A stretch of DNA of 64,000 nucleotides from Paraspadella gotoi (GCA_051294375.1 JBJCIZ010001666.1:46994-110993), one strand, 5' to 3'; positions 5,161-44,624 are shown, counted from the stretch's first letter. Numbers and translations: made by a program. Notes: generated by a model from the letters alone, not told the origin.

Positions 5161-5360
5161 ATATCAAATTTGGTAGCGTTCGATAGACAATTGCAAACAT
5201 TATCTACATGCATAATTTCATCATAATCCGACAATCCGTTCAAAAGTAATCGCCAAAAAGCAATCGCAAAAATCGCTCTTCAAACCGATCAACTTTCCTT
5301 TAAAATCGAGCTCGTTTTGATCCAACAAAGTCAAAGTTTAGTACTACGCGTAGTACTAAG
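5161..5360. repeat. Interspersed repeat; diverged inverted copy at ~16935-17125
   Basis: Shared TTCAAAAGTAATCGCCAAAAA, GATCAACTTTC and the palindrome AGTACTACG(CG)TAGT in opposite orientations. Confidence 0.6.
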
Positions 5361-18900: not shown

Positions 18901-19467
18901 TTACATAAAAGTTTCGTCAAACACTACGTCCTCCTCCTCCTCTTCCCTCTCCTCCTCCAGCACTTTTTTCAAAAAAAAATGAGGGGGGAACGATTGAGAG
19001 GGAACAAAGGAGGTGGAGGAAGGACGAGGTGGAAGGGGGGGAGGTGGAAATGAAGGTTCTTTCGGCTCGAAAGTCGAAAGAACCTTCATTTCAAACCCCA
19101 CTTTTTCCCCCTTCTTCTTTTTGATTGTGGCATAGTTTTTCGGAGCTTGATCGACCCGCCTTACTTTCGGTTTCGCCCCACCATGGGAAGAAGGAGATGG
19201 AGAGGCGACGATGACATCCAGAGGGATGTCCTCCATCTCCATCTCTGTGGTAAAGGATTTGAGTGGCGGCGGCGGTGTTGGCCAACACAAATCCTGAGTG
19301 TCCCATGATAGGGCTTTGTCCGTCGGTTGAGTTGTTGTTGTTGTTGTTGTTGTTGTCCTCTCTCGCCGGGAATTTTTTTCGCTAGATTTTTTTATTTGCT
19401 TATAAATAAAAAGTAAAATAATTACAATCAAAACGCTTAAGGCGTTTTGAATATTGCTATTTATCAT
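18901..19467 (-). CDS. Hypothetical protein with N-terminal transmembrane helix, Pro-rich and acidic tail
   Basis: 188-aa ORF; NALSVLIVIILLFIY followed by KQIKK. Confidence 0.55.
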   Translation of the reverse strand: MINSNIQNALSVLIVIILLFIYKQIKKSSEKNSRRERTTTTTTTTTQPTDKALSWDTQDLCWPTPPPPLKSFTTEMEMEDIPLDVIVASPSPSSHGGAKPKVRRVDQAPKNYATIKKKKGEKVGFEMKVLSTFEPKEPSFPPPPLPPRPSSTSFVPSQSFPPHFFLKKVLEEEREEEEEDVVFDETFM

Positions 19468-19542
19468 TTTTAATGTGATTCCCGACGAGGCGGTCAGGTA
19501 ACCGGGTGTTCCGTGTGNNNNNNNNNNNNNNNNNNNNNNNNN

Positions 19543-21396
19543 TTTTTTTGGCTATTCCATGGGTTACCGCGTCGTGGACCATCAAAGGTCCATTTTTTTA
19601 CTACAGGTAATTTTTTTTTTCGTTTGAAAAAAAAATCTCGAATATAAACCTTTCAATCTATTTTATTTTTCATCTTAAGTATTAAAATGCCAACGCGACG
19701 ACGACGACGCGACAACGAGGGCGCGACCCGCTGGACAGCATTCGGAAGATCATCTTTGCGACAACAACAACGACGCGCACAGCACGGCGAGGACGACAAC
19801 AACAACAACAACAACAACAACAGGCAACTCCGTCGCTAATCGAATCAACTTCATCAAGGTGCTTTAATGATAAACAATTAATAATTAATCAATAATATAT
19901 ACATTAATTATTTAATTATAAAAAAAATTGTTTTCAATATTTGTGTATAGGACAACAACAGGAGGGAAAGTTCCAGCAGACTCCATAAATAGAACAACAA
20001 CAACAACAAGGCACTCGATTCCAAAAGGAACCACAACATCCACAAGGTGATTTATGATAAAGAATTAATAAATTAATCAAGAATAAATTAATAAATAATA
20101 CATTAATTATTTAATTATAAAAAATTGTTTTCAATATCTGCATATAGGACAACAACAGGAGGCCGAGAACACTACAACAACAACAACAACAACAACAAGG
20201 CACTTCGACATCAAGATCCACAAGGTGATTCAATGATAAACAATTAATAAATTAATCAAATAAATACATCAATTATTTAATTATGTAAATCTATGAAAAA
20301 ATAAAAAAAACATATTTTTTTTCAATCTTAAGTAAACAAAATTTTTTTTTCAACTTACAGGCCAGAAACAAGCCAAACAACGTGGCATCAGAAACAAGCC
20401 AACACACGGCGGCATCAAACACAAACACATCGGATATAAATGATTTAATGATGAATACAATTAATAAATTAATCAAATAAATACAAAATAAAAAAATGTT
20501 TTTCAATTTTCAATTTTTTCTTTTCAGTCTTTGGCTTGTTTCTGATGCCACCGTTGTTTGGCTTGTTTCTGGCCTGTAAGTTGAAAAAAAAAATTTTGTT
20601 TATTAGATGAAAAAAAACTTATGTTTTTTTATTTTTTCATAGGATTTACATAATTAAATAATTGATGTATTTATTTGATTAATTTATTAATTGTTTATCA
20701 TTGAATCACCTTGTATCTTGATGTCGAGTGCCTTGTTGTTGTGTTGTTGTTGTTGTTGTAGTTTTCTCGGGGCCTCTGTTGTTGTCCTATATGCAGATAT
20801 TGAAAACAATTTTTATAATTAAATAATTATTGTATTATTTTATTAATTTATTTCTTGATTAATTTATTAATTCTTTATCATAAATCACCTTGTGGATGTT
20901 TGGTTCCTTGGAATCGAGTGCCTTGTTGTTGTTGTTGTTCTATTTATTGAGTCTGCTGGAGACTTTTCCCTCCTGTTGTTGTCCTATACACAAATATTGA
21001 AAACAATTTTTTTTATAATTAAATAATTAATGTATATATTTATTGATTAATTTATTAATTGTTTATCATTAAGCACCTTGATGAAGTTGATTCGATTAGC
21101 GACGGAGTTGCTGTTGTTGTTGTTGTTGTTGTGTTGTCGTCCTCGCGTTGCTGGTGCCGCCGTCGTTGTTGTTGTCGGCAAAGATGATCTTCCGAATGCT
21201 GTCCACGGGTCGCGCCTCGTTGTCGTCTCGTCGTCGTCGTCGTTGGCATTTTAATACTTAAGATGAAAAATAAAATAGATTGAAAGGTTTATATTCGAGA
21301 TTTTTTTTTCAAACGAAAAAAAAAATTACCTGTAGTAAAAAAATGGACCTTTGATGGTCCACGACGCGGTAACCCCATGGAATAGCCAAAAAAAAA
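19543..21396. repeat. Large inverted repeat (arms 19543-20402 and 20531-21396, ~128-bp spacer)
   Basis: The arms are reverse complements differing mainly by small indels. The left arm abuts a 25-N gap. Confidence 0.9.
20531..21249 (-). CDS. Multi-exon low-complexity (CAA-rich) gene built of tandem exon-intron units; mirror copy on + from ~19687
   Basis: ATG at 21249. Repeating pattern CAAG|GTG(A/C)TT...AT-rich...TATAG|GACAACAACAGGAGG about every 200 bp. Confidence 0.5.
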
Positions 21397-21713
21397 GGCA
21401 GATTGTGGAGAACATTTTTTATGATAATAGTGGGCGTCGAGTGCGGAGCAGTGAAGTGAAGTGAAAGTGAAATGAAGGAGTCCCAGATTTTGAAAATTTT
21501 GAGATAAGAAAAGAAAGAAAAGAAAGTCAAACAAAGATTAACAAAGAAAATCCTGATAAAAAATGGAAATGAATGCTTTTCTTAAAAGAAAGAAAAACAT
21601 TAATTTCCAGTTATTCTTGGCAAAGGTGCCAAAAGTTTGTTTAGGGAAAAGGTTTTTGTTCTGATGAAAACTATTTATTTTACTTATTCTGTCAATTTTT
21701 TTCAATGGAACGA

Positions 21714-21746
<33 letters not shown>

Positions 21747-22214
21747 TCGATTTTGGAGGGAAAGTTTTTTTTCATTATGAAAAGACAAAAGAATAATACA
21801 GATAAAGATTGTACGACATGAGCCTAACCCTATCCATGTTCTTCTCTCTCTCTCTCTCTCTCTCATTGTTTTTTTTTTTCATTTGCTGGTGAGAAGAACA
21901 AATCGCAAAAACAAAGGACTTGCGAGTCGGGATAATCGTTTTCACGCCCCTGATGCGATTGCAGATTTGACCTCTGTTTTTTAGGACGCTGCCAGGTGCG
22001 AAATTTTGGGGGCCGAACGAAATTTGACGAGTGGGATGAATCCTCTGACCCAAAGGTGTTCGTGGAAGGTAGCTTAAAAAGGGGGTTTTTTTTCGGAGAC
22101 CATTTCTTGAATTCGTCCCGCTGCTCGTCGCATCTTATTTTCCTCATTTTTTCGCTCAGACGATTTGACCAGTGTTTTTGCAAAATAGAAATTAAACAAT
22201 TTTGTGAAAAAAGA

Positions 22215-23533
22215 ATGGAAAACTTAAATTTTACCGCTAAATGCTTAATCTGTCGATCATATTTTGATAAAACTGCCAATAAACGGGGAATGAGTTGCGA
22301 GCATGGTCATAGCTATTGCACTCAATGCGTAGAAACGCAAAAATTTGTGACAAAAACGACATTTGTATGTTCGCTTTGTCGATCTCCATTCGTTAAGCCA
22401 TGTGAGGCTTGCAATGATTTTACTTTTAAAAATTTTTTCAATAACAATGAGCTTGAGGCCGCGAGCCTGTTAATTCAGGAACTAGTCGATGAAAATAAAA
22501 AACTGAGGTATTTTTTTTTTTTTTTGAGATAATTAATTTATATTGAACATTATTATAAATGCTTTAATTTAAATAATTAGGGAAACGCTGGGGAAAATTC
22601 GTGAGCGACAAAAACAAAACAAACTAAAAAAACAACAAAAATCTGAAAGCCATGGCGTCTCAAACGAAGAATCGGTAAAAAAACATTTTGTTTTTAAATT
22701 TTCGAATTTTTCATTTTACAAAAAAAGTTTTTAAGTGTTTTTTAATTTTTTTCGATTTTCCTTTCCCGTCCCATCCTTTTTCCTTCGGCGTCATAGCAAA
22801 CGCAATAACGCTGACATTGAGGTTGCCATTTGCGAGGCATCCTCGTCTTCCGGATTAATCAACAACAACAACAACACTTCACAGAACCGGTAAGTCAGAT
22901 TTCTTTCATATTATGCAAATGAGGAAATGAGGAAACGGGTGATTATCATAGAAAACTTATAGCTTTCATATATTTTCCTATATTTAGCTTCATGGAATAC
23001 GATTTTTCGAGAATAAATAACATAAGGTAAATTTTAATGTTTAATATTTTTCATTTTTGAAATGTTATTAAACTAAATGTGTATTTTTGTATAGATCTGT
23101 TTTGACGCCACTTTCTTCGTACGCCTTTGTCGAAAAACCTCATCCTGGTTGGTTTGAAATAATCAAGGAGAAATATGTTGCGATGTCACCTGGGGGTTTG
23201 ACTGAGAAGTCGCCTATTAGTCGTCTTAAAGTTTCTATTCCGGAGGCTCGCGAAATGATTTTTCTATGGGATACTGAGGTCATCCCAAGGGCATTCGATG
23301 AGAAGGAAGCTCTGATTGGTCAGGTGGATTCTTTAATGGGTCCGAAAATTCCATTAAGCGCTTCTATGGCATATGCAATCAATTTGTACAAACCACCTTC
23401 TTCTTACACCGCTAAAGTTAATATTCAACTTAGATTTTACACTTTAGAGGAAACCCAGGTCTTTTTCACTTCATGTACTATCTTTGGGGTTTCTCTGAAT
23501 CGCAAAGAAAGAAAATTTAATTTTTTATTTTAA
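22215..23533 (+). CDS. RING-finger (C3HC4-like) protein, 5 exons
   Basis: CLIC..CEHGHSYCTQC..CSLC. GT-AG introns 22508-22580, 22675-22796, 22890-22987 and 23027-23094 join it to ORF 23087-23533; one 1-nt indel must be assumed in an A-run of exon 2. Confidence 0.75.
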
Positions 23534-25717: not shown

Positions 25718-26350
25718 TAAGTCTTCGCATTGCCTCAATTAAAAATTATCATTTAGGCGTGTAACTCATGCAATCAATCGTTGTAATACCTGTAGTAGAT
25801 CTTCTGCATTTCTGCATATGAATATGTATCGCTTTTTAATGAACAGGTTTCTCAATTTTTTCTCGAACCGAAAAACTGTTATCAGAGTGTTTTGCATGCG
25901 TTTTGAAGGAAAATGAAGACTTAGTTACAAATAATTTTGTTTCTTTTAAAAAAGGGGTTTTAGCAAAAGAAGATTTAGAGCATTTGTTTTCTCGTTTAGG
26001 TTAATTTTTTTTATGTTTTTATATTTATGTTCATGTTTACTTTAAAAATAGATGGATAAATTAAAGAAGAAAAAATATGAACTGATTGATTTGACTCAAG
26101 TGATGATGATGATGATTATGATGATGATGATGATGAAATGAAAAAAAATGATTTTTGACTGTTATGGATTTGTCAAAGAAAATAAAAGTTGAAAATGACA
26201 CGAATGAGGATGAACCTTTAAACTTGTGTTTGAAAGATGAACCTTCTGCAAGCTCCTTACCCAAAAATCTGAACCCGATTTTTTTCTAACTCGGAATCCC
26301 TCGAGTCTATTGAGGACCTTGTTTTTTTAAGTCCTGAGGAATGGACGACC

Positions 26351-28891
26351 TTGGAAATGAATCTGGGTGATTTATCTTCGAGTATTGATTTATCTCCTTA
26401 TTTATTTAACGAACCTATCGTTTCTGTTTCTCCTCCCACTACATCTTCCCACTCGACGGGGGACTCTCCTCGCGTTCTCGGCGAAAAGCCGCTTATCTTT
26501 AACCCTGCATTATCTTTGCCCTCTTTCACGCCCCTAAGACCCTCCTCCAACACGTCGAGGACGAGTACAATGACAACAACAACGACAACGAGGACAATGG
26601 CTACGACGGCGACAACGAGTACAATGCTGGCGACGACGAGTACAATGGCTATGAGTACGACGGTTGATTTCGCGAGCTTGACCACTGACCTTAAGCCGGA
26701 TTTTTTTTCCAAACCTGTTATTTTTCCCTCTTCTCCTAAAGAAAAAACTCTCGAATGTCCCTTGTCTACCAACAGCAGCGGCAGTAGACCAGCCGCTGCA
26801 AACAAAAACTGCAGCGAGATGCTCGTTCACCCAAATATGAACCACTTTTCCAAACTCCATTATGGATGTAGAGGGTTTAATCAGGTTGGATGTGGAAGTG
26901 TGAGCAGAAAAGATGAAAAAAATGACGGAAATGAAGATTATGACGATGATGACGATGATGATGATGATGATGATGATGATGCATTTGAAAAGAACTTTGT
27001 GGCTTCGCGAAAATTTAAGAAAAACATTATTGAAAATATTGAATTAAGCTTTAATTCAGGAAAAAAGAAAAAAATATTAGGGGATTACCATGTTCAGTTG
27101 AGAGAATTAAAAAAGCAATTGTTGGTTCTTTTGGAGAAATATTTAAAAAAATACAAAACTTTAAAATATCACATGACTTTTTTGATAAAATTTCAAAAAG
27201 ATGAAGGAAAGGAATCTCAATTTCCTCAATTTTATTTTGATCAACCATCTCGTTTTCTGTTACAGTCAACTGATTTGTCTGCGCAAATAGATGAGGCATT
27301 TGATCGGATTACTGTAAGGACTCAAGATAAAACCTCATCGGGGTCAGGATTGATTTTCCAACAGATAAAAAAAGTTGATTTAACCATTATTAAAATATCG
27401 GCAAACTTAAATGCTAAAATTGGTTGTTATAAAGTTTTACCCCCCGAAATTATTCACAAACGTGCAACTTTGAACCTTAAGAATAAAGAAAATTCAGATG
27501 ATTGCATCATACTTTCGATTTTGGCCGGCCTTTATCATAAAGATATTCAGGATGGTGTCAAAAACCGCCCGTCTTCATATGAAAAGTTTAGAAAGAGACT
27601 AAATTTGGGAGATTTAAAAGGACCCTTATCTTTGAAAGAAGTGTATGAAATTGAAAAAAAAAATGAATGGTTGGGGATTAATTTATACTGTTTTACAAAG
27701 AAAAAAATAAAAAAAAAATATGGGAATAAACTGATTCAGAAAAAGAAAGGAAAAAAATTTATATGTGTTTTTTTCCCATATCGTTTAACAGAAAGGAATG
27801 ATAAAGAAAATGTAAAAATTGTTAATCTTTTATTAATTTCAACCGGAAAAGCATCAAAGGACAATTTAATGCATGCAGTAACAATAACGAATTTTAGTCG
27901 ACTTATATCAAGCCAGTATTCACGTCATTCCCACGCCATGCATGTTTGTGTTGGCTGTTTATCTTGTTTTAAAACTTTACAAAAGTTGAAAAAACACAGA
28001 GTCCTTTGTTCTGCAAACGAGATCAAACAAACTGTTAAATTTCCGCCTCCTAATACAAAACTCGAATTTACAAGGCACGAATCTCGTATTTTTAAGCTTA
28101 TCAACATATATGCAGATTTTGAAACCCAGCGTCGTGAAAGGAGTTTTGCGAAGGCTAATCCGGAGACCCACGAAGTTTTGGGTGAAATTTCTATTCCTGT
28201 GGAAATAAAGAAAAAATATCCGTGGGCGAATAAAAAAATTCACTTGACGCATTTGTCAAACTGTAAAAATTGTTCATTTGTTAAACCATGCAGTAAATTA
28301 GAGGTTTCCAATGAAGTTTTGGCGGAATTGGTTCCAATATCATACAGTTATTATGTAAGTGCAAATTTTTCACACCCTGAATTAAATAAAATAAAATATT
28401 ATATTGGAATCGACGCTGCTACAAAATTTTGTGAAGCTATTCGCGAAGAGATGAAAGTAATACACCAAATAATGTTTGAAGATGAGGCTCTACCTTTAAT
28501 TATGACAGACGAAGATGAAATTAACTTTCAAAATGCGACTCATTGTTATATCTGTCGAATTCCATTTTCTAAAGAAATAATTAAAAACAGAGACCACCAG
28601 CATTTCCGTTTGGCACCAGATGCGGGGGAATTTAGAGGTGCTAGTTGCACATCTTGTAATTTGAAAGCTTATGAGAGGCCCGTTATTAACTTGTATTTCC
28701 ATTGTTTAAAATTTGATCAGAATTGTTTGGTTCTCGGGTTCTCAGAAAATAATGCTAATGGAGCATTAAAATCTATGACAAATTGCTTATTTAAATCATC
28801 TCAAGAACTCATAGGGTTTGATCTTGTATGGAATTGTGATTTTTGTCGTGAAAAACACTTAAAAGAAATTCAAGAAAACAGCGACGACGAC

Positions 28892-28926
<35 letters not shown>

Positions 28927-30263
28927 CAATGATGATTCTGACAGCGAGAGTGGAGACAGCGATGCGACCGATGATAGCAACGATATTGAAATGTGTGATT
29001 TAAACAAACAAAACATGAAAATGAATGAGTCAAGTGAAATGATTAAAGTATGTAGCTGCAAAAATATATGTATAACAAGAGTGCAAGATTCCTATCGTTT
29101 TTTAACTGCATCCCTTTCGGATTTGATTTCAATTTCATTCCGTGACTGTTATCCTTTATTTTGCGAAAAATGCATACTTGTAGATGACTTAAGAATTTTG
29201 TGCGCAGAATGCGACAAGAAAAAAAATCCTCAAGTAATTTTTACTTCCGTTTTTCAATATTTGTATGACAATGAATTAGACCTTAGTTTCTTTAATCTTA
29301 TCTCTTCCGGCAAGATGGCTTTTCCGTACGATTACCTTACATTAGATCGATTAAATGAGATCGAAATACCGGGCAAAGAGGCATTTAGAAATGAATTAAA
29401 TAAAAATGATATTTCCGACGAATGTTATGAAAACACGAGGCAAATTTATGAAAGTTTTAAACTACGTAATTTAAAGGATCTGTTGATAATATATAACTGC
29501 TTGGATGTCATGTTTCTTCGAGACATATTCGAAGAATATCGCAAAATTGCATTTCAAGAATATTCAATTGACCCAAGTTATTATCCAACATTAAATTCAT
29601 ACAGGTTCGTGATTGACCGAGTGGAATGAGAAGAGAGAAGAAACAGTTGATCGAAGAGTTCGCGAGAATCGAGAGGCGAGAATCGAGAAGCGAGAGAGAC
29701 CCAGAGAGAGAGAGAGAGATAACAAAGAGAGAGAGAGAGAGAGACGCGGGTGACTTCCTAGCATTCAAATGTTTTGTTTTGGACTCACATGCGGTTTTAA
29801 AAATTAATATTCTCTCTCTTTCTTTAGCTTTTCGATTATGCTCTTTCAAACTGGGATAAAATTGATCTGTTTGACGAATCTCAAAGCGAAATTTACTACA
29901 AATTCAAGGCTCTAACAAAAGGTGGTCTAGCGGGGGTGTCGAAGAGAGCTGAGGTTGCGGTGAACAACGAAGTTGGTGGAAATGAAGGTCAAAATTACTC
30001 AATTACACTAATTTTCGAGGATTATCCAGAATTTATATGGTTTTTGTATGAGTTTGTTTTCTTCCTGTTGGTTCTTTTTATAAGTTAAATGAGTACGAAG
30101 TTGAGCAACTTTTTCAGAAAATCCGCCTCGAGAACCAGCATCTTCAGTGGACCGGAAAAGGAGCCGAGAGGGTATGTTATTGGCAACCGAATCTTATTTT
30201 GTATTTACTCTATTGTTAAAGTAATTTTTTTTTTACTAACTTTCTATTTCTTTGTCCTTTTTC

Positions 30264-30307
<44 letters not shown>

Positions 30308-32108
30308 CGGGCTGTGCGATTTAGTTTTATTTTAGAAGTAAAATACTCTATTCCCGAAAATGTTAAGCATTTTTTCGGTCATATCCATTACTCTGCATAA
30401 AGCGAAATATTTCTGAAGAGGAAATAAGTCCGTTTCAAAAATTTTTATGCAAAAAATATCAGCAAAGTCTTGGTTCTACCGAAAGATTGGTTGCCGATAT
30501 GTGTGATAGAGATAATTATGTGATTCATTATATGAATCTAGGGATGGTTCTAAACTCGGATATGTCCTTGAGAAAATATACAATGTGTACAGTTTTCCTC
30601 AGAAGCCATTTTTAAGGATTTCATAGATTATCATACAAAAAACGAAACCAATGCACTAGTAAATTTCAATCTAATCAGTTAAAAAATTGTGTCAACTCAA
30701 TATATGGAAAAACACTTCAGAACCCATATAATTATCGAATATTAAAATTGCTCATAATGCTAAGCAATTAAGGAATATGTATTGAAACCGGAAATGAAAT
30801 CCGTTAAGGCAATTTCTAAGTCTTTTATTTGGTTCATAATTACAACTACGAAGTTTATCTCAATCAGCCATCTTATATCGGAGGTAATTTAATATTAATT
30901 AATGAATAATATTTAACCTAAAATCGCACGGTTCCGGTTCTTCTTTCCTTCCCGCCTCATCCCGCTTACTTCCCTCAGCTCACATACTGGAATTCGCCAA
31001 AAAAAGATGCATTGAATACTATTGCTTTTATATTCCTAAAGCTTTTCTCTTGGAAGAGGGACGTTAGTGACGAAGTAATTCTCTATGACACGGGTAATAA
31101 TTACTCAAAAAAAAAAAAATTAAAAAATTCAATCTCTCTCTCTCTCTCTCTCTTTCTCATCCTAATTTTTTTCTTTTTTTTGATTTCAGATTCTTTCATT
31201 TTCTCTGTTCGATACGATTCTCGGCCCTCGATGTCTGACGTGGACCGGGATAATGAAGCTTTTGGCTCCCATCACCGATTTCTTCGGTTCTTAGTAAGGA
31301 AAAGCGTGTTTGTATGTATATAAATACATTTAAAAGATTAGTATTAACTTATAAACGATGCTTTTCCTTCCCAGTCCTTACCCCTCTCATCCGTTTTGGA
31401 AAGAAAATGGCGGAGACGATCTCGACACGCTGTTGCTCTGGGCCAATCGGAACGCGGGCGCGGTTGGAAAAATGAAGGTGAGCAAAACGTGACACATAAT
31501 TAACTCTATTTGCGTGTTTATACCTTATGTATCTCTTTTGCTCAAAGGATGAAATTGGTACTTCCTTCATCAAGTCGGTGATCGCGTTAAAGCCGAAACT
31601 CTACTCTCTGGAGATCCAGCACGAGGCCGTCAATCCTCCTCGCGAATGGCCCTTCTTCGCATTGCCCCCGGAACAAAGAGACGATCCTCGCGTGCTTCTC
31701 CCTCCCCCCACGGATCCGGACGAAACTACCCCTCCCCCTTCACCACCCATCATTCCAGAATTCAACATGGAAGAAGAATGCGTCTCTGACCATCTCCTCG
31801 GAAACGGCGTCGACGTTGAACGCGTTTCGCGGTATAACAGGAAACCGTCAGAAGAAGAAGAGGAAGCGCAACGGCAGCGGCACGAGTCCGGTGGCGACGT
31901 GTTCGGTGACCGCGGTCGGCGGCGGCAGCAGCAGACGATTTGACCATGGAACCGACGACCGCGGACCGACGCCGCCGCGGGACCGACACACGGACGACCA
32001 CGTGGTCGACGACTCCGGTGTTCTCGGGTGCGGTGCCCACTCCTCCTCCTCTCTCCTCCTCCTCCTCCTCCCGATATCGATGTCCGCGGCGTCGGCGGGC
32101 GGCCGGGC

Positions 32109-32145
<37 letters not shown>

Positions 32146-32515
32146 GCGGCGGCGGCGGCCGCGGCGGCAACCACGATGGTGTGTTGTGTGCCTTCCTTCG
32201 TTCCATCCCACGACTGGAAATCAGTCTGACAAACATGGTCAAGGGAAAGGAGTCCAACGCTCGATCAAGGACAAAGAGCTAAGACACATTCACTTTTAAA
32301 AAACTTTATTTCACTGATTTGGCGATTCGAAACGAAAATCGTCGACTCAAACATTTGGACTTTAAAATCTATTTCGAAACTCTCACTAAAACTTCTCTCA
32401 GTAACTTGGAAATTAAACGGTTTTGGATTCTAGATTGCACTCTTTGCCCTATAATCATCCTTTTTGCAAACGTTTTCAAGCTATCTGCTATATAAAAAAA
32501 AGCCGGAATATCTGA
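26351..32515 (+). CDS. polB: Protein-primed family B DNA polymerase (vOTU-like, Zn finger, exonuclease with EndoVII-like insert, polymerase); 6 introns; 3' half has 1-nt indels
   Basis: GSG..YKVLP..NSDDCIILSILA..HAV (vOTU-like), IYADFET (ExoI), CYIC..RDHQH..FRGASCTSCN, KMAFPYDY, YNCLDV (ExoIII). After splicing: KGGLAGVSKR, NLYGFCMS, GFILEV, KNCVNSIYGKT, YIGAHILEFAK, YDTDSFIF, GKMKDE, LKPKLYS, KTSLSNLEIKR. Introns: 29605-29827, 30172-30324, 30884-30978, 31094-31189, 31294-31374, 31478-31547. The real start may be ATG 26164. Confidence 0.95.
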
Positions 32516-34715: not shown

Positions 34716-35247
34716 TTATATACTCTTGCCAAGCAAAGGGAGAGAAAATAGTTCTTCATTTACCAAAGATGTGGGTTCAGCTTCAAACGCGCTAACGATA
34801 CTAAATGCTAAGGCATCATAATACCATAATTCATTTTCATGTTTATCTATTTCATATATCTTATATAAAATATCTTTTAATGAATAATTTCTAGCCGTGT
34901 AAAGCACATAGATTATATTGTGATGTCCGCAAGTGGCCGAATAATCGTTTTGAAGGGGATAATTATTATAGTAAACTGGAATAGAATTATTTGTCTTTTT
35001 TTCTATGTAATCACGAAATGTTTGATTTATACTCGGAGGAAAACCGAGGGAATCAAAATATACTAAATAATCTTTTTTTATATGAAAACTCGACCAATGG
35101 GAGCCGAGACTTTCTCGACCAGAATGGTTGCAAGTGAATAGACTTCCAATCGGTGCATTTAATGGAAGCATATCGGCCGGATATGTGCCCAAAAATACTT
35201 TTTTAGCATAAATATCACTCGTCACTATTTTATCTATTGTTAACGTG

Positions 35248-35252
<5 letters not shown>
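34716..35252 (-). CDS. Adenain-family maturation cysteine protease
   Basis: FLGTYPAD, GSHW, YFDSLG, PLQ..TCGHH, with the catalytic H/D/Q/C residues intact. The likely start is MNTL at 35252; the upstream extension is (GA)n-derived. Confidence 0.93.
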
Positions 35253-35294
<42 letters not shown>

Positions 35295-35355
35295 TCTTGG
35301 TCTCTGTCTTTTTTGTTTTTTTTTCTTGGTCTTTCCGTTTTTTTTATTTCTGCCC

Positions 35356-36738
35356 TTAGTAGTCGAATGAAATATTTCTGTTTTCATTCAAAAATATACT
35401 AGCCCCAAATTCTGAATATAACAAACATACTATTGCATCATTTTTTGAAGTACTTTTAAAAGTGATTTCCAGGCGACTTGTTGCCGTTTGGCGAACATCG
35501 TCGTGATCTTCATTAACACTTTTATAGTTTCCAGTATCTAAGGCAAAGAAAGTTAACCCATTTGCATAATTATCATAACTTATTGTCGCCGGAATGTCGT
35601 ATTTAAAATTTTCTCTAACCATTGAAAAATAGGCTTCTTCATATTTTTTTTGCGCAAAGTCCATATGCTCTAACCCTTGAGGAGAAGGATGAACTACTCC
35701 GTCTAAGACCAGCTTCAAAGATGTTATATCAAAATGTTGAAATTCGTAACAGCTTTTATTTCCAACCCCTAGAAATGCTTTTTGGGATACAAATCCAATC
35801 ACGCAAGTACTAGGTTTTATATTTTGATAAAAAATAGAATCTATGTAAACAGACTTTGAATTCGCGGGAATTACGAATGGACGAACACTGGATTGACGAA
35901 CTGCATAATTTATTCCTCCATTTTTAATTAAATCTTGTTCCAATGATAATTTAAGTGATGGTAAAATGTCCACGCGTTTTACAAGAACCCTCATTTGTTT
36001 ATATGATATTTTATAATCATTTATATTTGCAGCATTACTTCTACACGAGAATTCGATTGAATTCTTTTTGAAGTCTAATGTGATAGGCGTGAGAGCTGGT
36101 AATAATTTACTCTGATTTGAAATCCCTGTATAAATCTGCCCATAAATCTTAATTACTTTAGAATTAGCTGTTAATAAACAACGTTTTTTAAATCCACTGT
36201 CCGGAGCATTCGGATCAGCTCGATTTTGATCGAATTCTGTGTCCCCATAAAACCCTTGCAATCTCTGCTTGTTATCTCTCAAATCCTTATTATAATATAA
36301 TGTATTTATAAAAAATGATAAATAACTTTGAGTATTGTAACTATCAGTAATTGCACTTCCGTTTATTCTCAATGTGATTGAGGAAAACAAAGTGTTTGCG
36401 ATACCATCCTCAAAACCTATTGAATTACCAGTGGGGCCAGCGGGGGGAGTTCCAGTGGGCGGCGCAAAATTATCAAGAGACGAACCGCCAGCTTTTTCTA
36501 TTGTAACATCTGCCTCAAACATCAAAGAACTTAAGTCTGTATATGATGAAGATAACCCAATGTCAAAGGAAATATTACTGCTTGTGTCACTTAATGAGGT
36601 TAATGGCGTAAAAAATTCATATCTGCATCCTAAAATTCCTTTTTGCTTTAACGGAACAGAAAATAAATTCAAAGCGGCACTGATTGACTCCTCTTGAGGA
36701 GAATATCCCGCCGGCCTTACCAAACGATCATCAGTCAT
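35356..36738 (-). CDS. Major capsid protein (double jelly-roll)
   Basis: 460 aa; LNLFSVP..Q, YTDLS, NTLFSSITLRING, QSKLLP, IGFVSQKAFLG..YEFQHFDI, LEITF..CLLYSEF are typical of Polinton MCP. Confidence 0.92.
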   Translation of the reverse strand: MTDDRLVRPAGYSPQEESISAALNLFSVPLKQKGILGCRYEFFTPLTSLSDTSSNISFDIGLSSSYTDLSSLMFEADVTIEKAGGSSLDNFAPPTGTPPAGPTGNSIGFEDGIANTLFSSITLRINGSAITDSYNTQSYLSFFINTLYYNKDLRDNKQRLQGFYGDTEFDQNRADPNAPDSGFKKRCLLTANSKVIKIYGQIYTGISNQSKLLPALTPITLDFKKNSIEFSCRSNAANINDYKISYKQMRVLVKRVDILPSLKLSLEQDLIKNGGINYAVRQSSVRPFVIPANSKSVYIDSIFYQNIKPSTCVIGFVSQKAFLGVGNKSCYEFQHFDITSLKLVLDGVVHPSPQGLEHMDFAQKKYEEAYFSMVRENFKYDIPATISYDNYANGLTFFALDTGNYKSVNEDHDDVRQTATSRLEITFKSTSKNDAIVCLLYSEFGASIFLNENRNISFDY

Positions 36739-37318: not shown

Positions 37319-38251
37319 TTATATAGCATTTTTAGCCAGACGAAATCCAAGTGTAAGATAAGTGGGACCGGCTCTTAATTTTGCGTCCTCCGAATAAAAA
37401 TTTTTTAAAACAATTAAAATATTGTCAATGTATGACCGACCAACGGGATGAAATATAAGTTCTTTGAAAGTAAAATTCTGTCTACCTCCCAAATTTTTAT
37501 CATCTATAGGCACTACTCTTAGCAATCTTGAATATTTTGACCCCTGGATCCAATCTTGAATTATGTCGCAATAACATAAAATCACATTATCCGGTGACAT
37601 GTTAGGATTAAAAAAAAAATGAGAAGATTCTTCGTCGTCGCACTCTATGTCATTTTGTTCCTTAAAAAATCTCTCCTCATATCCTGTTATTTTTCCATTT
37701 TTGTCCTTGATAGGATATTCATAACTTGGTCCCTTCTTTGGTATTCCTACTGTTGTATAAGCAGTGTTAGACGGGGCGTCGGCATAAACTCCTAATAAAA
37801 ACACCATTTTTCCATATAATCTCAAATTAATCCAATTTTCTACAACATTATAATAAACATAACGATCTATTTTGTTATATTCCAATATTTTTATGTCCTT
37901 CAATCTTGGCACGGATTGCCAAATTAATTTATTAATTTCATCCGTTAATCTTTCTGCAGTGTCGTAATTACCAAATGGAACTACAAATTCTAATTTTTGC
38001 CCATAAACTTTTCCAGGAGCCATTGGATCATCAAATTCCGCCAAAAAGTCAAAAATAACAACTTTATGATATATCTTTGATTCTTCCGGAATGTTATATG
38101 TCGAATTTATTAAGGATAATTCAACTAGTGCCACTTCATAATTTTCATTCAATATTACAGGCTCGGGCAATGCATTGCGAAAATTATAATGTGTATTTGG
38201 AAACTGATCGATAGAATCACTGCTCATTAATTGTATTAGAAAATCTAACAT
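37319..38251 (-). CDS. Minor capsid (penton) protein
   Basis: N-terminal FLIQLMSSDS..FPNT..F...LP..I.L..YEVALVEL and C-terminal CYCDII..GS..SRLLRVV are typical of the Polinton minor capsid. Confidence 0.88.
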   Translation of the reverse strand: MLDFLIQLMSSDSIDQFPNTHYNFRNALPEPVILNENYEVALVELSLINSTYNIPEESKIYHKVVIFDFLAEFDDPMAPGKVYGQKLEFVVPFGNYDTAERLTDEINKLIWQSVPRLKDIKILEYNKIDRYVYYNVVENWINLRLYGKMVFLLGVYADAPSNTAYTTVGIPKKGPSYEYPIKDKNGKITGYEERFFKEQNDIECDDEESSHFFFNPNMSPDNVILCYCDIIQDWIQGSKYSRLLRVVPIDDKNLGGRQNFTFKELIFHPVGRSYIDNILIVLKNFYSEDAKLRAGPTYLTLGFRLAKNAI

Positions 38252-39527
38252 CTTTTAGCTTGTTCAATTCTTTCTTTGTCATCCAGGTTGCCTTCTCCGA
38301 ATTTGCACCTTTCACCAAATATAATTTTTCACCTCCTATTTTTTTCCCAGATCGTAAGGATCGCTTATCTACAACTTTTGTTTTAGTAACGAAAAAATAA
38401 TCTTTTTTTTCCGACACTGACGGTTTCACTTTCTGTAGTTGATATGCGTAATAATGCTTTTGTTTATTTTTTAGCCTATACAAGGGCGGAACACCGGGAA
38501 TTTTTTCACCGATTTCAAATGCAGAATCATCGAATTCCTTCTCATACCCTCTCTTAAATACTTTCTTTTCAAGTTTAACTCGAACCAGATCACCCACTTT
38601 TAAAGGAAATTTCATGTTTTTAAATTTCTCTTTATGTTTTCGTCTTTCATCCTGATATTTCTTCCTTAAGAATTTTTCGTTAGTTGACAAAGATGCCTCA
38701 AACGGGGAAAGATTATAAAGTGACGGAGTTTTTCGAAGGTTTAATGATAAAGTAACCAAGGGCAATATTTTAGGCCAATTATAATCTTTTAATGCATAGC
38801 AAGTTTTCCACAATAACTTTTCAATTTGAAAGTTGTAATTCTCAATTATATATGATTTTTTCCCTGTCTTTGTAACATAACCCTTTACCTCAAACTCTGC
38901 AAACAAATCTTTTACTTGCGCATTATCAAATTCTTTTCCCGCGTCAAAATGCACTGCAGAAGGCACGCGCCAATTGTTCTGCTCAAAAACAGACAAAATG
39001 GCCGCTCTCACTTCCGGTCCACTTTTACTTTTCAATGCACGCGTCCACCCAAAACGACTGAAAGCATCGCAACATGTAAGAAACATTCGAAAAGGACGCC
39101 CAAACGATTCCAAACTCCCTACATCTACCAGATCCATGCACCATTGATAATTTTGAAACAAACGCACTGTTTTTCGATAGTGGTCACGTGGTATTTTAGT
39201 CTTTTTAAATAAAGTATAGGTATTTTGACCTGATAAAAAATTCTTTACATCTTTCCTACTAATCTTGGGATCCTCTAATTTTGCTTGTTTAAATAATGCC
39301 TCAATGCCCCCAAATGATCCCGGGTTTTCTATGGAATAATATATTTTTTTTAAAATAGAATTTTTTTTTTCATCTTGCAATTCGTTTTGTGAATTAGGTT
39401 GCTCATCCTCACTCTCATCTTTTTCAGCTTCTCCCAAGTCACCTTGGTCAACGCGTCTTTCTCCCAAGGCACCACGCTCTCTCTCACGATCTTTATTCTC
39501 TTCCTTCTCCATACTCTTTGATATCAA
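38217..39527 (-). CDS. int: Retroviral-like DDE integrase (c-integrase) with chromodomain-like tail
   Basis: YY...PGSFGG, WCMDLVD, DAFSRF, FDAGKEF, IIENYN, LKVGDLVRV, FKRGY, YLVK..TW. Confidence 0.95.
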   Translation of the reverse strand: MISKSMEKEENKDRERERGALGERRVDQGDLGEAEKDESEDEQPNSQNELQDEKKNSILKKIYYSIENPGSFGGIEALFKQAKLEDPKISRKDVKNFLSGQNTYTLFKKTKIPRDHYRKTVRLFQNYQWCMDLVDVGSLESFGRPFRMFLTCCDAFSRFGWTRALKSKSGPEVRAAILSVFEQNNWRVPSAVHFDAGKEFDNAQVKDLFAEFEVKGYVTKTGKKSYIIENYNFQIEKLLWKTCYALKDYNWPKILPLVTLSLNLRKTPSLYNLSPFEASLSTNEKFLRKKYQDERRKHKEKFKNMKFPLKVGDLVRVKLEKKVFKRGYEKEFDDSAFEIGEKIPGVPPLYRLKNKQKHYYAYQLQKVKPSVSEKKDYFFVTKTKVVDKRSLRSGKKIGGEKLYLVKGANSEKATWMTKKELNKLKDVRFSNTINEQ

Positions 39528-40408: not shown

Positions 40409-40804
40409 TTTTATTACTATTTTTTATCTTCTTCTTTTTTTTTATTCCGTCTATTTGCTAGTTGGAATGATAGACTTATTAATGTTGGTAATAACGTGCT
40501 TATTAATGTTCCCAAAAACTTTCCCTCTTGTAATACACCTTTTCTCTTTTTCATGGAAATTGATTTAAGAGACAACTTATAAATTTGGCTTTTATATGGT
40601 TTTTAGTTTTTTTATCAAGTCAGAATTTACTGCAATATTAGTCAATAATAAATTTCTTTGCTACTTCGGCTAATGTTTTAATTAAATCTTTAGATTTTGA
40701 TGAATTTAAATAACTTTTTTGATCCTTTTTTCTTAATGAATTTACATATTTCATTTCAGGAATACTACTTTCAAGTCTACGACCAGCCGCAGCATTCCTC
40801 TCAT
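40380..40804 (-). CDS. Small Polinton protein ending in a Q-x-G site plus amphipathic helix (1-2 indels; ends approximate)
   Basis: DLIKTLAEVAK, then after a frameshift ISMKKRKGVLQEGKFLGTLISTLLPTLISL. This resembles the QxGGFLxxLL ORF usually found after the Polinton ATPase. Confidence 0.65.
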
Positions 40805-41626
40805 TTAGTCTTGAATTTCCCTTCACCATCATGCCTTTCACGGTAAGCAATCCCAAAACCTTCTTCATTCGGTAAAAAATTAGTTCTAATTCTTAATTCT
40901 TCGGGAGTTGCTATTGTAAAATCAATTAATAAATACCCGTATGGCCAATTAATTAATTGACTGTTTTGATGGGCTTCGTGTAATATCTGAGGACGGGAGG
41001 GTGAAAATTGGCTTCCTAACCTTAACAATGTTGTTTTGTCTCGTAAATATTTTGTTATTAATAAATAATGACAGTTTAAACTTATCTTTCGAAAATTTCT
41101 TGGGTATTTTTCATAAATATCGTGACAAGTTATAATTACTGATATATTCCGATGATGGCTTAGGCAAGTATAGAGGGACTCTAAATAAAATTGATTTAAT
41201 TTAGTAATTAAATCGTCGTAGATTAGGAGAAGATGATTAACGCCAATTAAATTTTCTGGATCTACGACACTTTCGTCCACCCCTTGACGAAAGATAACTT
41301 TATTTGCCAAATCAGGACTTTCAAATTCTTTATTCTCTTGATCATAAAAATATAAAATTTTGTCAGGTGGAACATCTATTATTTGATCAGAATAACGACA
41401 TATTGATAATAGTTTGTGTGATTTCCCAGTAAATGAGCTTCCGGAAATGCTGCGGAAAAAAAATGGAAAGAAAACAAAATTTGTTTAAATTAAAACTTTT
41501 TAAAAAATATTTTTCTCGATTTTTTTATCAATTTTTTTTTCTCCCCTCATTATTGTTTTTCTTTTATACTCACATCATCGTAAACGGAGCGCGAAATCGT
41601 AAATCGAAATTTTTTATTTCATCCAT
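40801..41626 (-). CDS. A32/FtsK-like packaging ATPase, 2 exons
   Basis: Removing intron 41450-41573 (GTGAGT..CCGCAG) gives MDEIKNFDLRFRAPFTMIISGSSFTGKS (Walker A), then LLIYDDL (Walker B), SHHRNIS, ISLNCHY, PYGYLLID and RIRTN. Confidence 0.95.
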
Positions 41627-41705: not shown

Positions 41706-41891
41706 TTAGACTCTCTGACCTAAATCCGAGTCCGTATTTTGTTCTCTATTTCTTTTTATAAACTTAAAAATTAAAAAAATAATTACAATAATTAAGATAA
41801 AAAGCCTTTCAAAAATTTCGAACTGGGTCAAATTGTAGGGTGCTTTTTCTTTGCCCGAGTTCAAATTTAGGTCGCAATAAGTGTGATTCAT
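41706..41891 (-). CDS. Small single-pass membrane protein
   Basis: 61 aa; LFILIIVIIFLIF followed by KFIKR, similar in design to 18901-19467. Confidence 0.5.
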   Translation of the reverse strand: MNHTYCDLNLNSGKEKAPYNLTQFEIFERLFILIIVIIFLIFKFIKRNREQNTDSDLGQRV

Positions 41892-41950
41892 TTTTTCTGC
41901 GTTTTTTTTTTTTTTGTATTTAAATNNNNNNNNNNNNNNNNNNNNNNNNN

Positions 41951-43700
41951 TGTTGGCGCCGCGTTTGACGACGTCGACGCTTGGCGCAGCACGAACGACG
42001 CCGAGGACGAGGACGAAAGGAGGCCGACCGCTGCCGCAATGCCAATACCAATGCCGATGCTGAAATGGACGAGAAAGAGAAAAAAAATAATTTTTCATCA
42101 TTTTTTAAATTAACCAATCAATCAATCAACATCAATCAAGAATAATCAATCAATCAATAATCAATCAATTAATCATTTAAATCTTACTTGAAACTACTGG
42201 CAACGAAGTCTCGACACTGCTCGAGACGATTGGAGACGGCGAGTACGACGCGATGAAGAGGAAGAGCAAAAAGAAGGAGGTTTCGGCGCAATAGCAACAC
42301 TCATAATAAGTGTTGAACTAGGAAAGGAGCAAGAAAATGCGTTTTTGTTGTTTGTTTTTGGTGCTTGAATTCATATCATTTAAAACTTACTTTGACCGCT
42401 CTGCAACGCAGGTCGAAAGACAGCTGCTGCTGCTTCTTTCGTCGTCACCGTCCTCGTTGTTGTCGTCGTCTCCCCCGGGCCTCCGCTTCCTTCTCCTTCT
42501 TCCCCTTCTTTGGCTTCTTCGTCAAAGGTAATTGCTCTGAAAAGAAATGAAACATTATTTTTTAATGCATTAAATATAATTTATTTTTAAACATTGCATC
42601 TCTCCTTTTTCTTACCGGTTTTATCGTCCTCATCGGCGCCGGCGACGGCGGAGTTGTTGTTGTCGCCATTGTTGTTGTTGTTGTTGTTGTTGTCGTCGTT
42701 TGCGGTATCGGATTTAGGGGTGATGTCTGCATAAGAATATTTCTAAGCGTTTGTACTTCCAAAACCCGCGTGTATAAGCTCGAAATACTCTGTAGATTCC
42801 TCATATGGCCCTATTTGATATTTGATATTTGATATTTGATATTAGTAATTTGTGATTACCGCTCAATTAATAAATGTTATTTTTCCCTTAAAAGTTAGTA
42901 TGTTAGTAACCCGTTAATTTTTTGTGATTAATTTTGGTCGGATTTTTTATGTATCTGTTGTTATTGTTGTGGACCCTTACTATAAAATAATTCTGCCAGC
43001 ATCGGCAGCAAAGTTCGTTGATGGCCGCCCTCGAAGACGTCGTCCCACAACCGAAACACGCATCAACCAGCGTGGGTTTTTCCATGTGGTCCGGGAACCG
43101 GTAGTTGAATGGATCGGCTGTAGATAAAGAAAAAAAAAGTCATTATGTAGTTAGCAGAAGTCAATAGTTTAAACTTTTTTATTGGACAAATATTTCATTT
43201 TTTAAAAGCTCACCATCGTGGGGGAGGGGATTGAAGAATGAGTCCCATTCATCAAAGCTGGTTCAGCATAGCAGTTAAATACGGGGGGCGTTCTTCCCCC
43301 TCCGACCCTTTTTCTTCGCAGACTGAGATAAAAAAGAAGAGGGAGGGGAAAAGGGAAAACAAGATTAAAACAAGAATATTGATTAATAAATAATCCCTTT
43401 AACTACGACTTACAATGTCGCCCAAAGAACGCTAAGCCGCGGCGGGTGTGCATAAAGCACTCGGTTTTGATGATCGCTGGTAGGAAAATTTAGAAGGTCT
43501 GACTTGACACATACATTTTTTAAATCAAAAAATTTAAACCTACATTCCGATTGCCCCATGTTGCGGAGCCTTCACGCACGCCTAAAATTAGTTTTATCGA
43601 GAATTTTAATTTACAAAATATTATTCATAAAAATGACAACAACAACAACAACGACAATTGGTGTACCACGTAGGACGGCGACCCAGTCGAGTTGAGCCAT
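41951..43700 (-). CDS. Micro-exon-rich hypothetical gene (about 8-9 exons), 3' end lost in a gap
   Basis: Kozak ACCACCATGG at 43700. GC-rich exons alternate with AT-rich GT-AG introns, with donors near 43414, 43214, 42980, 42615, 42390 and 42187. One exon has CFGC..CCRC. Confidence 0.55.
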
Positions 43701-43817
43701 GGTGGTCGGATTCAGTCGTGGGCGGACAATGGCGTCGCCCAAACCCCTCCAACGAACGCCAACAACACACAAACAACGAAGGGTAATATCCCATACCGAC
43801 TGGTTAATGGAATAACC

Positions 43818-43851
<34 letters not shown>

Positions 43852-43859
43852 CAACCAAC

Positions 43860-43892
<33 letters not shown>

Positions 43893-44071
43893 TATGGGTC
43901 GCGCAACGAAAAGTTTTAGCGAAAATGTTTGATTGTAGATGGGAATATCTGCCAAAACTGAAAAGTATAAAAAGGGGACAAATCGTCCCCTTTTTATACT
44001 TTTCAGTTTTGGCAGATATTCCCAATCTAACAATCAAACATTTTCGCTAAAACTTTTTGTTGCGCGACCCA

Positions 44072-44118
<47 letters not shown>

Positions 44119-44125
44119 GTGGTTG

Positions 44126-44156
<31 letters not shown>

Positions 44157-44624
44157 CGGTTATTCCATTAACCAGTCGGTATGGGATATGACCCTTCGTT
44201 GTTGTTGTTGTTGTTGGCGTTCGTTGGAGGGGTTTGGGGCGACGCCATTGATCCGCCCACGACTCGAATCCGACCACCATGGCATCAAACTCGACTGGGT
44301 CGCCGTCCTACGTGGTACACCAATTGTCGTTGTTGTTGTTGTTGTCATTTTTATGAATAATATTTAGTAAATTAAAATTCTCGATAAAACGATAATTTTA
44401 GGCGTGCGTTGAAAGGCTCCGCAACATGCGGGCAATCGGAATGTAGGTTTAAATTTTTTTGATTTAAAAAATGTATGTATCAAGTCAGACCTTCTAAATT
44501 TTCCTACCAGCGATCATCAAAACCGAGTGCTTTATGCACACCCGCCGCGGCTTAGCCGTTCTTTGGGCGACATTGTAAGTCGTAGTTAAAGGGATTATTT
44601 ATTAATCAATATTCTTGTTCTAAT
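43364..44624. repeat. ~1.26-kb palindrome with a 5-nt loop (AAATC, 43980-43984)
   Basis: ..TATAAAAAGGGGAC-AAATC-GTCCCCTTTTTATA..; arms of ~620 bp differ mostly by indels. Confidence 0.95.

Follow-up and report, generated by a model that had tools for sequence, protein, structure and literature searches.

A Polinton-type element with six probable spliceosomal introns in the catalytic half of its DNA polymerase gene

The 64-kb window analysed here, a single stretch of DNA taken as a whole, contains a gene for a family B DNA polymerase of the protein-primed type (pPolB) whose catalytic half is interrupted by six inserts. Can such a gene still give rise to one polymerase, and if so by which route? 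We regard it as probable (roughly 0.7) that the element carrying the gene is transcribed by its host in the nucleus and that the inserts are introns which are constitutively spliced, so that one TP-vOTU-exonuclease-palm-thumb protein is made. The comparison behind this reading involves one copy of the element and no close relative.

Polymerase gene and surrounding element

The first-pass annotation of this DNA had described about 3.2 kb of uninterrupted frame upstream of the first insert, ending at a stop inside it. This description was correct. An open frame starts at 26273 and runs up to the TGA at 29627-29629, which lies 22 nt inside intron 1, and its first in-frame ATG (26357) is located ~3.2 kb before the intron 1 donor (Table 1). 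An intron-like GT..AG stretch at 26000-26051 (+) ends immediately before the likely ATG of the polymerase at 26052. The TP/vOTU/exonuclease content ascribed to exon 1 was confirmed as well. The vOTU Cys and His and the acidic residues of Exo I-III are all present, each of them common to at least 109 aligned homologues, and the predicted fold of the residues encoded by 27050-29602 (pLDDT 83.5, 76-sequence alignment) matches adintovirus PolB, its best viral match being an adintovirus protein with an E value of 2e-22. In the Exo II motif (28700-28717) a Cys follows the His, as in 2 of 114 homologues, and the catalytic Asp is retained. The TP-like domain is labelled from its position and from weak PDB fold matches (E about 0.2); when the N-terminal 337 residues were folded from their sequence alone, the pLDDT was 33. 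Searches of the PDB by sequence and by fold gave no significant match, and the separate polymerase exon pieces were not recognized in a Pfam search. The order TP-vOTU-EXO-PALM of a protein-primed family B polymerase is present.

At its 3' end the gene extends to near 32,490, beyond a stop at 31943, a part that the earlier annotation had omitted. Thumb motifs resume at 32228-32490 with a score of 24 bits, compared with -20 for the best of 30 shuffles. Within the thumb, a 635-nt stretch (~31611-32245, +) is of low complexity, with 66% GC and a Pro/Arg/Ala-rich translation; no good donor or acceptor site was found in it.

Table 1. Coordinates, in the window, of the polymerase gene and of the other features of the element.
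Feature	Position	Strand	Remarks
Left palindrome	19544..21398	.	long, imperfect; starts at 25-N gap
pPolB N-terminal start, candidate	26052..26290	+	ATG 26052; short broken frames
pPolB exon 1	26273..29604	+	low-complexity leader, TP-like domain, vOTU, exonuclease with HNH/endonuclease-VII-like insert
vOTU catalytic residues (exon 1)	Cys 27503, His 27872	+	
Exonuclease residues	Exo I D/E 28115/28121, Exo II D 28715, Exo III Y/D 29492/29504	+	
Intron 1	29605..29827	+	223 nt; exonuclease/palm boundary; donor GTTCGT, weakest of six
Exon 2	29828..30171	+	palm motif A region; several single-base frame breaks
Intron 2	30172..30324	+	153 nt; donor GTATGT; CTAAC branch-like site; CT tract
Exon 3	30325..30883	+	includes motif B; seven profile-called frame breaks
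Intron 3	30884..30978	+	95 nt
Exon 4	30979..31093	+	ends within motif C; one implied frame break
Intron 4	31094..31189	+	96 nt; phase 1; within second Asp codon of DTDS
Exon 5	31190..31293	+	
Intron 5	31294..31374	+	81 nt; donor GTAAGG; least constrained by homology
Exon 6	31375..31477	+	one implied frame break near start
Intron 6	31478..31547	+	70 nt; phase 0; within GxMKDE motif
Last exon	31548..32490	+	K-x-Y motif near 31600, GC-rich stretch, thumb motifs with two frame breaks
Maturation protease-like ORF	34716..35387	-	similar to an ORF of contig L002
Major capsid protein-like ORF	35356..36738	-	open, no intron
Probable minor capsid (penton) ORF	37319..38254	-	
rve (retrovirus-like) integrase	38217..39527	-	open, no intron; PF00665, E 1.3e-8
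Packaging ATPase, two exons	40801..41626	-	intron 41573-41450
Right palindrome	43364..44624	.	long, imperfect; unrelated to left palindrome

The polymerase gene belongs to an integrated Polinton/Maverick-type element of roughly 24 kb. The integrase scored 35.4 bits against PF00665 (cut-off 32.6), and the ATPase gave a weak Pox_A32 match in Pfam. The metagenome contig L002 also encodes a pPolB and an integrase, and the ORFs of both are matched by those of the element; further matches were obtained for the ATPase, protease and capsid ORFs, with E values of 9e-10, 2e-8 and 4e-22, respectively. From its position and from the known Polinton gene set, we take the ORF at 35356-36738 to be presumably the major capsid protein. 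The maturation protease is presumably the ORF at 34716-35387, and a candidate for the minor capsid (penton) protein is the ORF at 37319-38254, which had no match in Pfam or on contig L002.

The ATPase gene is also split. Its intron, on the minus strand, is 124 nt long, has GT-AG ends and phase 2 and lies directly before the Walker A motif. The two exons join in frame and are collinear with the intronless L002 ATPase, no frame break being needed.

No terminal inverted repeat (TIR) was detected as an inverted match between 15-22 kb and 41-50 kb of the window, and a target-site duplication was not found around the element. Assembly gaps of 25 N are located at 19518, 41926 and 48767 and may hide the ends of the element. 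The two flanking palindromes, the right one of which is centred near 43,980 on a hairpin with hardly any loop, could be fold-back elements, hairpin ends or read artefacts.

Several smaller features were recorded in and around the element. At its left end an ORF at 21954-22532 (+) resembles a RING finger, with Pfam matches below the cut-off. Intron-like GT..AG stretches occur in small genes on the plus strand (22890-22987 and about 23027-23095) and on the minus strand (42390-42318, 42187-42060 and about 42616-42537). Two short ORFs, 18901-19515 (-) and 41706-41924 (-), each adjoin a 25-N gap and encode a hydrophobic segment followed by basic residues; they show weak DNA similarity over 57 nt (77%) and possibly are part of a related element to the left. 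Fragmented ORFs at 51.5-55.3 kb (-), with a 102-nt tandem repeat at their 5' end, had no Pfam match; to us they resemble a decayed DNA-transposon gene. At 2.3-4.4 kb a unit of about 49 nt is repeated in tandem.

Borders and splice signals of the six inserts

The six introns proposed in the first-pass annotation were found exactly where it had placed them, and each starts with GT and ends with AG. The features of U2-type introns are present, namely GT donor, AG acceptor, pyrimidine tract and branch-like site. The mean pyrimidine fraction in the 20 bases before the six acceptors is 0.775, compared with 0.42 at 119 other AGs between 29500 and 31700, a mean that was reached in none of 100,000 random draws of six AGs. 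Five of the six donors, compared with 11 of 97 GTs, match a consensus-like donor set; the exception is intron 1. A branch-like pentamer occurs in the last 100 nt of all six introns, which is a weak sign in AT-rich DNA. No similarity was found among the six introns or between them and the rest of the 64-kb window. An origin from introners, which would have left related copies, is unsupported within this window.

The borders were compared with intronless homologues by means of a score matrix built from 100 full-length natural homologues (72 from a representative search and 28 of the 111 from the first search). This matrix was aligned to the DNA by a splice-blind aligner, which allows frame breaks and long inserts and ignores splice sites. 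Local alignment returned inserts of 223, 153, 95 and 70 nt at introns 1, 2, 3 and 6 at both settings used. At intron 4 an insert of 90 nt (31093-31185) was obtained at one setting and two pieces at the other, and at intron 5 likewise 103 nt or two pieces. When the whole gene was aligned splice-blind, intron 1 came out at 223 nt, intron 3 at 95 nt and intron 6 at 70 nt, whereas intron 2 measured 181 nt. When GT-AG ends were enforced in the whole-gene run, introns 1, 3 and 6 were recovered as in Table 1, the donor of intron 2 differed, and introns 4 and 5 were missed. The alignment score of the real region was 169, compared with -219 to -256 for eight shuffles. As controls, five metagenome polymerase loci outside the matrix were aligned; none of them required a frame break, and four contained no long insert, the fifth being L002 with its 101-nt insert (see below).

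The alternative donor that the constrained aligner selected for intron 2 (30147) was rejected; it is a poor donor, and its use removes the Gly before the xLEV motif. Rejected likewise was a donor at 31075 for intron 4, with which the first half of DTDS is lost.

Of two catalytic motifs, neither DTDS nor G-x-[MF]-K-[DE]-E can be read in any of the six frames across 19.5-44.7 kb. Among the 1560 GT-AG pairs spaced 50-400 nt apart, only one creates DTDS, and this pair is intron 4. The claim that an intron splits the codon of the catalytic Asp in DTDS is thus upheld. Similarly, G-x-[MF]-K-[DE]-E is created by one of the 1560 pairs, which is intron 6. The junction patterns of introns 1 and 3 were each produced by one pair and that of intron 2 by two, these three patterns having been devised after the junctions had been seen.

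The collinearity with pPolB homologues expected after excision was thus exact for introns 1, 2, 3 and 6 and motif-based for intron 4, but weak for intron 5. With intron 5 removed, the distance from DTDS to GxxKxE is 67 codons, compared with 32-66 in homologues (median 46, n=82); retaining intron 5 lengthens it to 94 codons and brings in a stop at 31321. In motif C the Tyr directly precedes DTDS, a spacing found in none of 100 diverse homologues. Taken together, the six inserts are likely to be ordinary spliceosomal introns that are removed by the host.

Frame breaks and the need for splicing

The exons between the introns are not intact in this assembly. Ten single-base frame breaks, which the earlier annotation had omitted, were called by the profile within 29865-30831; an eleventh call, at 31185, substitutes for intron 4. 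The phases of the junctions imply three more breaks, in late exon 2, exon 4 and early exon 6. Two others are located in the thumb, and the short broken frames that start from ATG 26052 suggest that the 5' end of the gene is damaged too. About 13 breaks in the 1,225 nt of exons 2-6 face none in the 3.3 kb of exon 1, a distribution with P about 4e-8 if breaks were uniform. Since the breaks of this group are confined to exons 2-6, sequencing errors would have to reflect a patchy assembly quality, and real decay of the catalytic half fits this distribution as well.

Nonsense codons speak to this choice. No in-frame stop was found in 493 codons of selected exon stretches, a number that includes 131 codons from the last frame, of which only ~21 are profile-matched. 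A random substitution in these stretches creates a stop with a probability of 0.051. If 3, 5 or 10 substitutions are assumed to accompany each of 13 indels during decay, 2.0, 3.3 or 6.6 stops are expected, and the probability of observing none ranges from 0.14 to 0.001. The kind of sequence difference found nearby is also informative. Between the arms of the two flanking palindromes, 55 gap events (45 with a length of 1 nt) stand beside 12 substitutions. For three further repeat pairs of the window, the ratio of substitutions to gaps was 47:15, 21:21 and 3:5. Indel-dominated differences are typical of uncorrected long reads. The frames of the capsid, integrase and ATPase genes are open. Gaps of 25 N might be a sign of gap-filling with raw long reads, an idea to which we attach little weight. 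The accessible text of PMC6240028 and PMC9635638 does not confirm this use of 25-N gaps. From the missing nonsense codons and the indel-dominated noise nearby, the frame breaks are likely to be long-read assembly errors.

The introns could nevertheless be real and the copy a decayed relic, with genomic breaks and a dead catalytic half next to a TP/vOTU/exonuclease half that remains open. The concentration of breaks downstream of exon 1 and the atypical spacing at motif C agree with this view, as does the degraded state of most Maverick loci in vertebrate genomes, reported in the accessible part of PMC8097293. Against it stand the matched stretches free of nonsense codons, the predominance of indels between the nearby palindrome arms, the broken frames that also occur at the 5' end of the gene and in the thumb, and the three 25-N gaps in and around the element. 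We consider a relic unlikely.

An active polymerase had been said to require splicing. This holds in so far as DTDS and G-x-[MF]-K-[DE]-E do not exist in the unspliced gene, but splicing alone is not sufficient in this assembly. It gives no open frame because of the ~13 breaks in exons 2-6.

The further suggestion that retention of intron 1 may act as a regulatory switch found no support. Such a switch, which can coexist with constitutive splicing of the gene, would leave a TP/vOTU/exonuclease protein without polymerase that controls or primes replication. Intron 1 does lie at the exonuclease/palm boundary, it is the longest of the six, has the sole non-consensus donor and consists of 79% purine over its first 140 nt, and the exon 1 product is predicted to fold confidently on its own, with the pLDDT given above. 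However, its stop is not special, since retention would bring a stop within 30 nt for four of the six introns, 2 and 4 being the ones that would be read through. Moreover, intron 1 contains no AATAAA or ATTAAA signal, and its site is not common to the closest relatives seen. A transcript retaining intron 1 would carry a premature stop above five more junctions, which is a usual target of nonsense-mediated decay, and its loss is expected. Finally, release of the TP from polinton polymerases is already attributed to cleavage by the vOTU domain, a published hypothesis in the accessible text of PMC11161782. A switch at intron 1 thus appears quite improbable.

That the inserts are not spliced at all, being small mobile elements or microsatellite-rich insertions that entered a dead element after integration and only look like introns, is very improbable: CT/GA microsatellites, common elsewhere in the window, do occur in several of them, introns 2 and 4 have lengths that are multiples of three and no in-frame stop, and introners mostly enter dinoflagellate polinton-like elements after integration (PMC12166617, accessible text), but each of the six inserts, read on the coding strand, is bounded by GT and AG and has a pyrimidine tract and a branch-like site, their excision at these borders restores invariant motifs, they have no sequence in common with each other or with the rest of the window, and the ATPase intron on the opposite strand is sense-oriented as well.

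Relatives, known elements and implications

Homologues of the polymerase are 24-40% identical to it, with about 30-40% for the best ones, and those that are named come from insects and corals. Its nearest Atlas clusters are mostly eukaryotic, with Arthropoda as the commonest phylum. Judged from these relatives, the host is likely to be an animal. Neither a close relative nor a spliced full-length one was among the candidates listed, within their length limits, by the protein searches and the representative search. In scans of viral contigs none of 9 pattern matches for the capsid protein and none of 51 for the polymerase alignment were confirmed as relatives; a metagenome scan yielded eight loci from 160 pattern matches, all of them distant (22-38% identity).

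Some relatives have intron-like inserts at other sites. Contig L002 contains at 5200-5300, after polymerase motif B, a phase-0 GT-AG insert of 101 nt at a site that is unused here. The folding of this insert into a hairpin (-11.6 kcal/mol) points to a small element with inverted repeats that acts as an intron. The closest clade, as defined by common Cys-rich inserts, comprises P0125/P0277/P0278/P0279/P0281/P0282 and P0283/P0284. In the P0125 cluster, of whose eight members six were read, the match ends right after Exo III, five sequences continuing with one tail and one with another. P0283 and P0284 likewise leave homology right after Exo III. Judged from the protein letters, the residues of the tails at this point are compatible with G|GTAAG-type and G|GTACGT donors and with T-rich acceptors. 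P0127 is open across both the site after Exo III and the site of intron 1. Because the positions differ between relatives, the sequences suggest separate intron gains among related polymerases.

Published work is cited here from the accessible part of each text. The element has the genes of adintovirus-like animal Polintons/Mavericks (PMC8097293, PMC10748475), namely pPolB, rve integrase, ATPase, protease-like and capsid-like genes, and shares with them the two convergent gene blocks over about 24 kb and the adintovirus PolB-like fold. Neither TIRs nor a target-site duplication were detected in it, and assembly gaps may hide its ends. The ORFs of intact vertebrate Mavericks are said to be intronless (PMC8097293), whereas at least seven GT-AG introns are located in core genes here. 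Polinton pPolB has the domain order TP-vOTU-EXO-PALM (PMC11161782), and its vOTU Cys/His and the acidic residues of Exo I-III are found in exon 1 of the present gene, but palm and thumb are divided among another six exons; the main text of that paper, as far as accessible, does not use the word 'intron'.

Introns have been reported from other polinton-like elements. The introners of dinoflagellate eupolintoviral elements (PMC12166617) are spliceosomal-type inserts too and occur in full-length elements as well. They form repeated families, are mostly non-coding and were mostly gained after integration, whereas the six introns described here are mutually dissimilar and lie inside catalytic motifs. 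Group I introns are known from protist polinton-like viruses (PMC12220804). Those are self-splicing, 309-376 nt long and located in a short gene near the capsid gene; the introns of the present polymerase gene measure 70-223 nt, are bordered by GT and AG and have pyrimidine tracts.

Protist endogenous viruses and virophages are reported as intronless (PMC10120064, PMC8547959), and a prokaryotic gene caller is said to work on them, the elements having no introns (PMC10120064). One survey demands a tBLASTn match of 650 aa and an ORF of 900 aa (PMC10748475). The accessible portions of PMC10748475, PMC11296320, PMC11071296 and bioRxiv 10.64898/2026.10.13.758929 contain nothing on spliceosomal introns in these genes. 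A literature search covering mainly the main text of open-access papers brought up no account of spliceosomal introns in the polymerase of an animal Polinton; an earlier description may exist.

According to the reading that we favour, constitutive splicing of a host transcript, RNA polymerase II of the host would transcribe the element in the nucleus. Host splicing would then join the catalytic motifs into a single TP-vOTU-exonuclease-palm-thumb polypeptide, which would presumably be active as a polymerase. This lineage probably acquired its introns singly while replicating in a eukaryotic, likely animal, nucleus, and probably retained them because the element would not survive if an insert in the palm stayed unspliced.

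As far as the sequence allows, the main point may be an intron-rich, capsid-encoding Polinton lineage, of which the present copy is a noisy example. More tentatively, and with more doubt than belief, one may think of a lineage of Polinton viruses that are active and encode capsids, in which repeated independent gain has made the core genes of replication and packaging intron-rich and replication is gated by host splicing, intron 1 or the choice of isoform serving as latency control; surveys based on ORFs could have overlooked such viruses or classed them as decayed. Polintons and related endogenous viruses have been described and searched for as intron-free (PMC10120064, PMC10748475). Such a practice would tend to discard elements split by introns or to count them as fossils, and the counts of active elements would be biased accordingly. 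Recent, lineage-specific introns in catalytic motifs would also allow intron gain, and the dependence of such elements on nuclear transcription, to be tested in a clean case.
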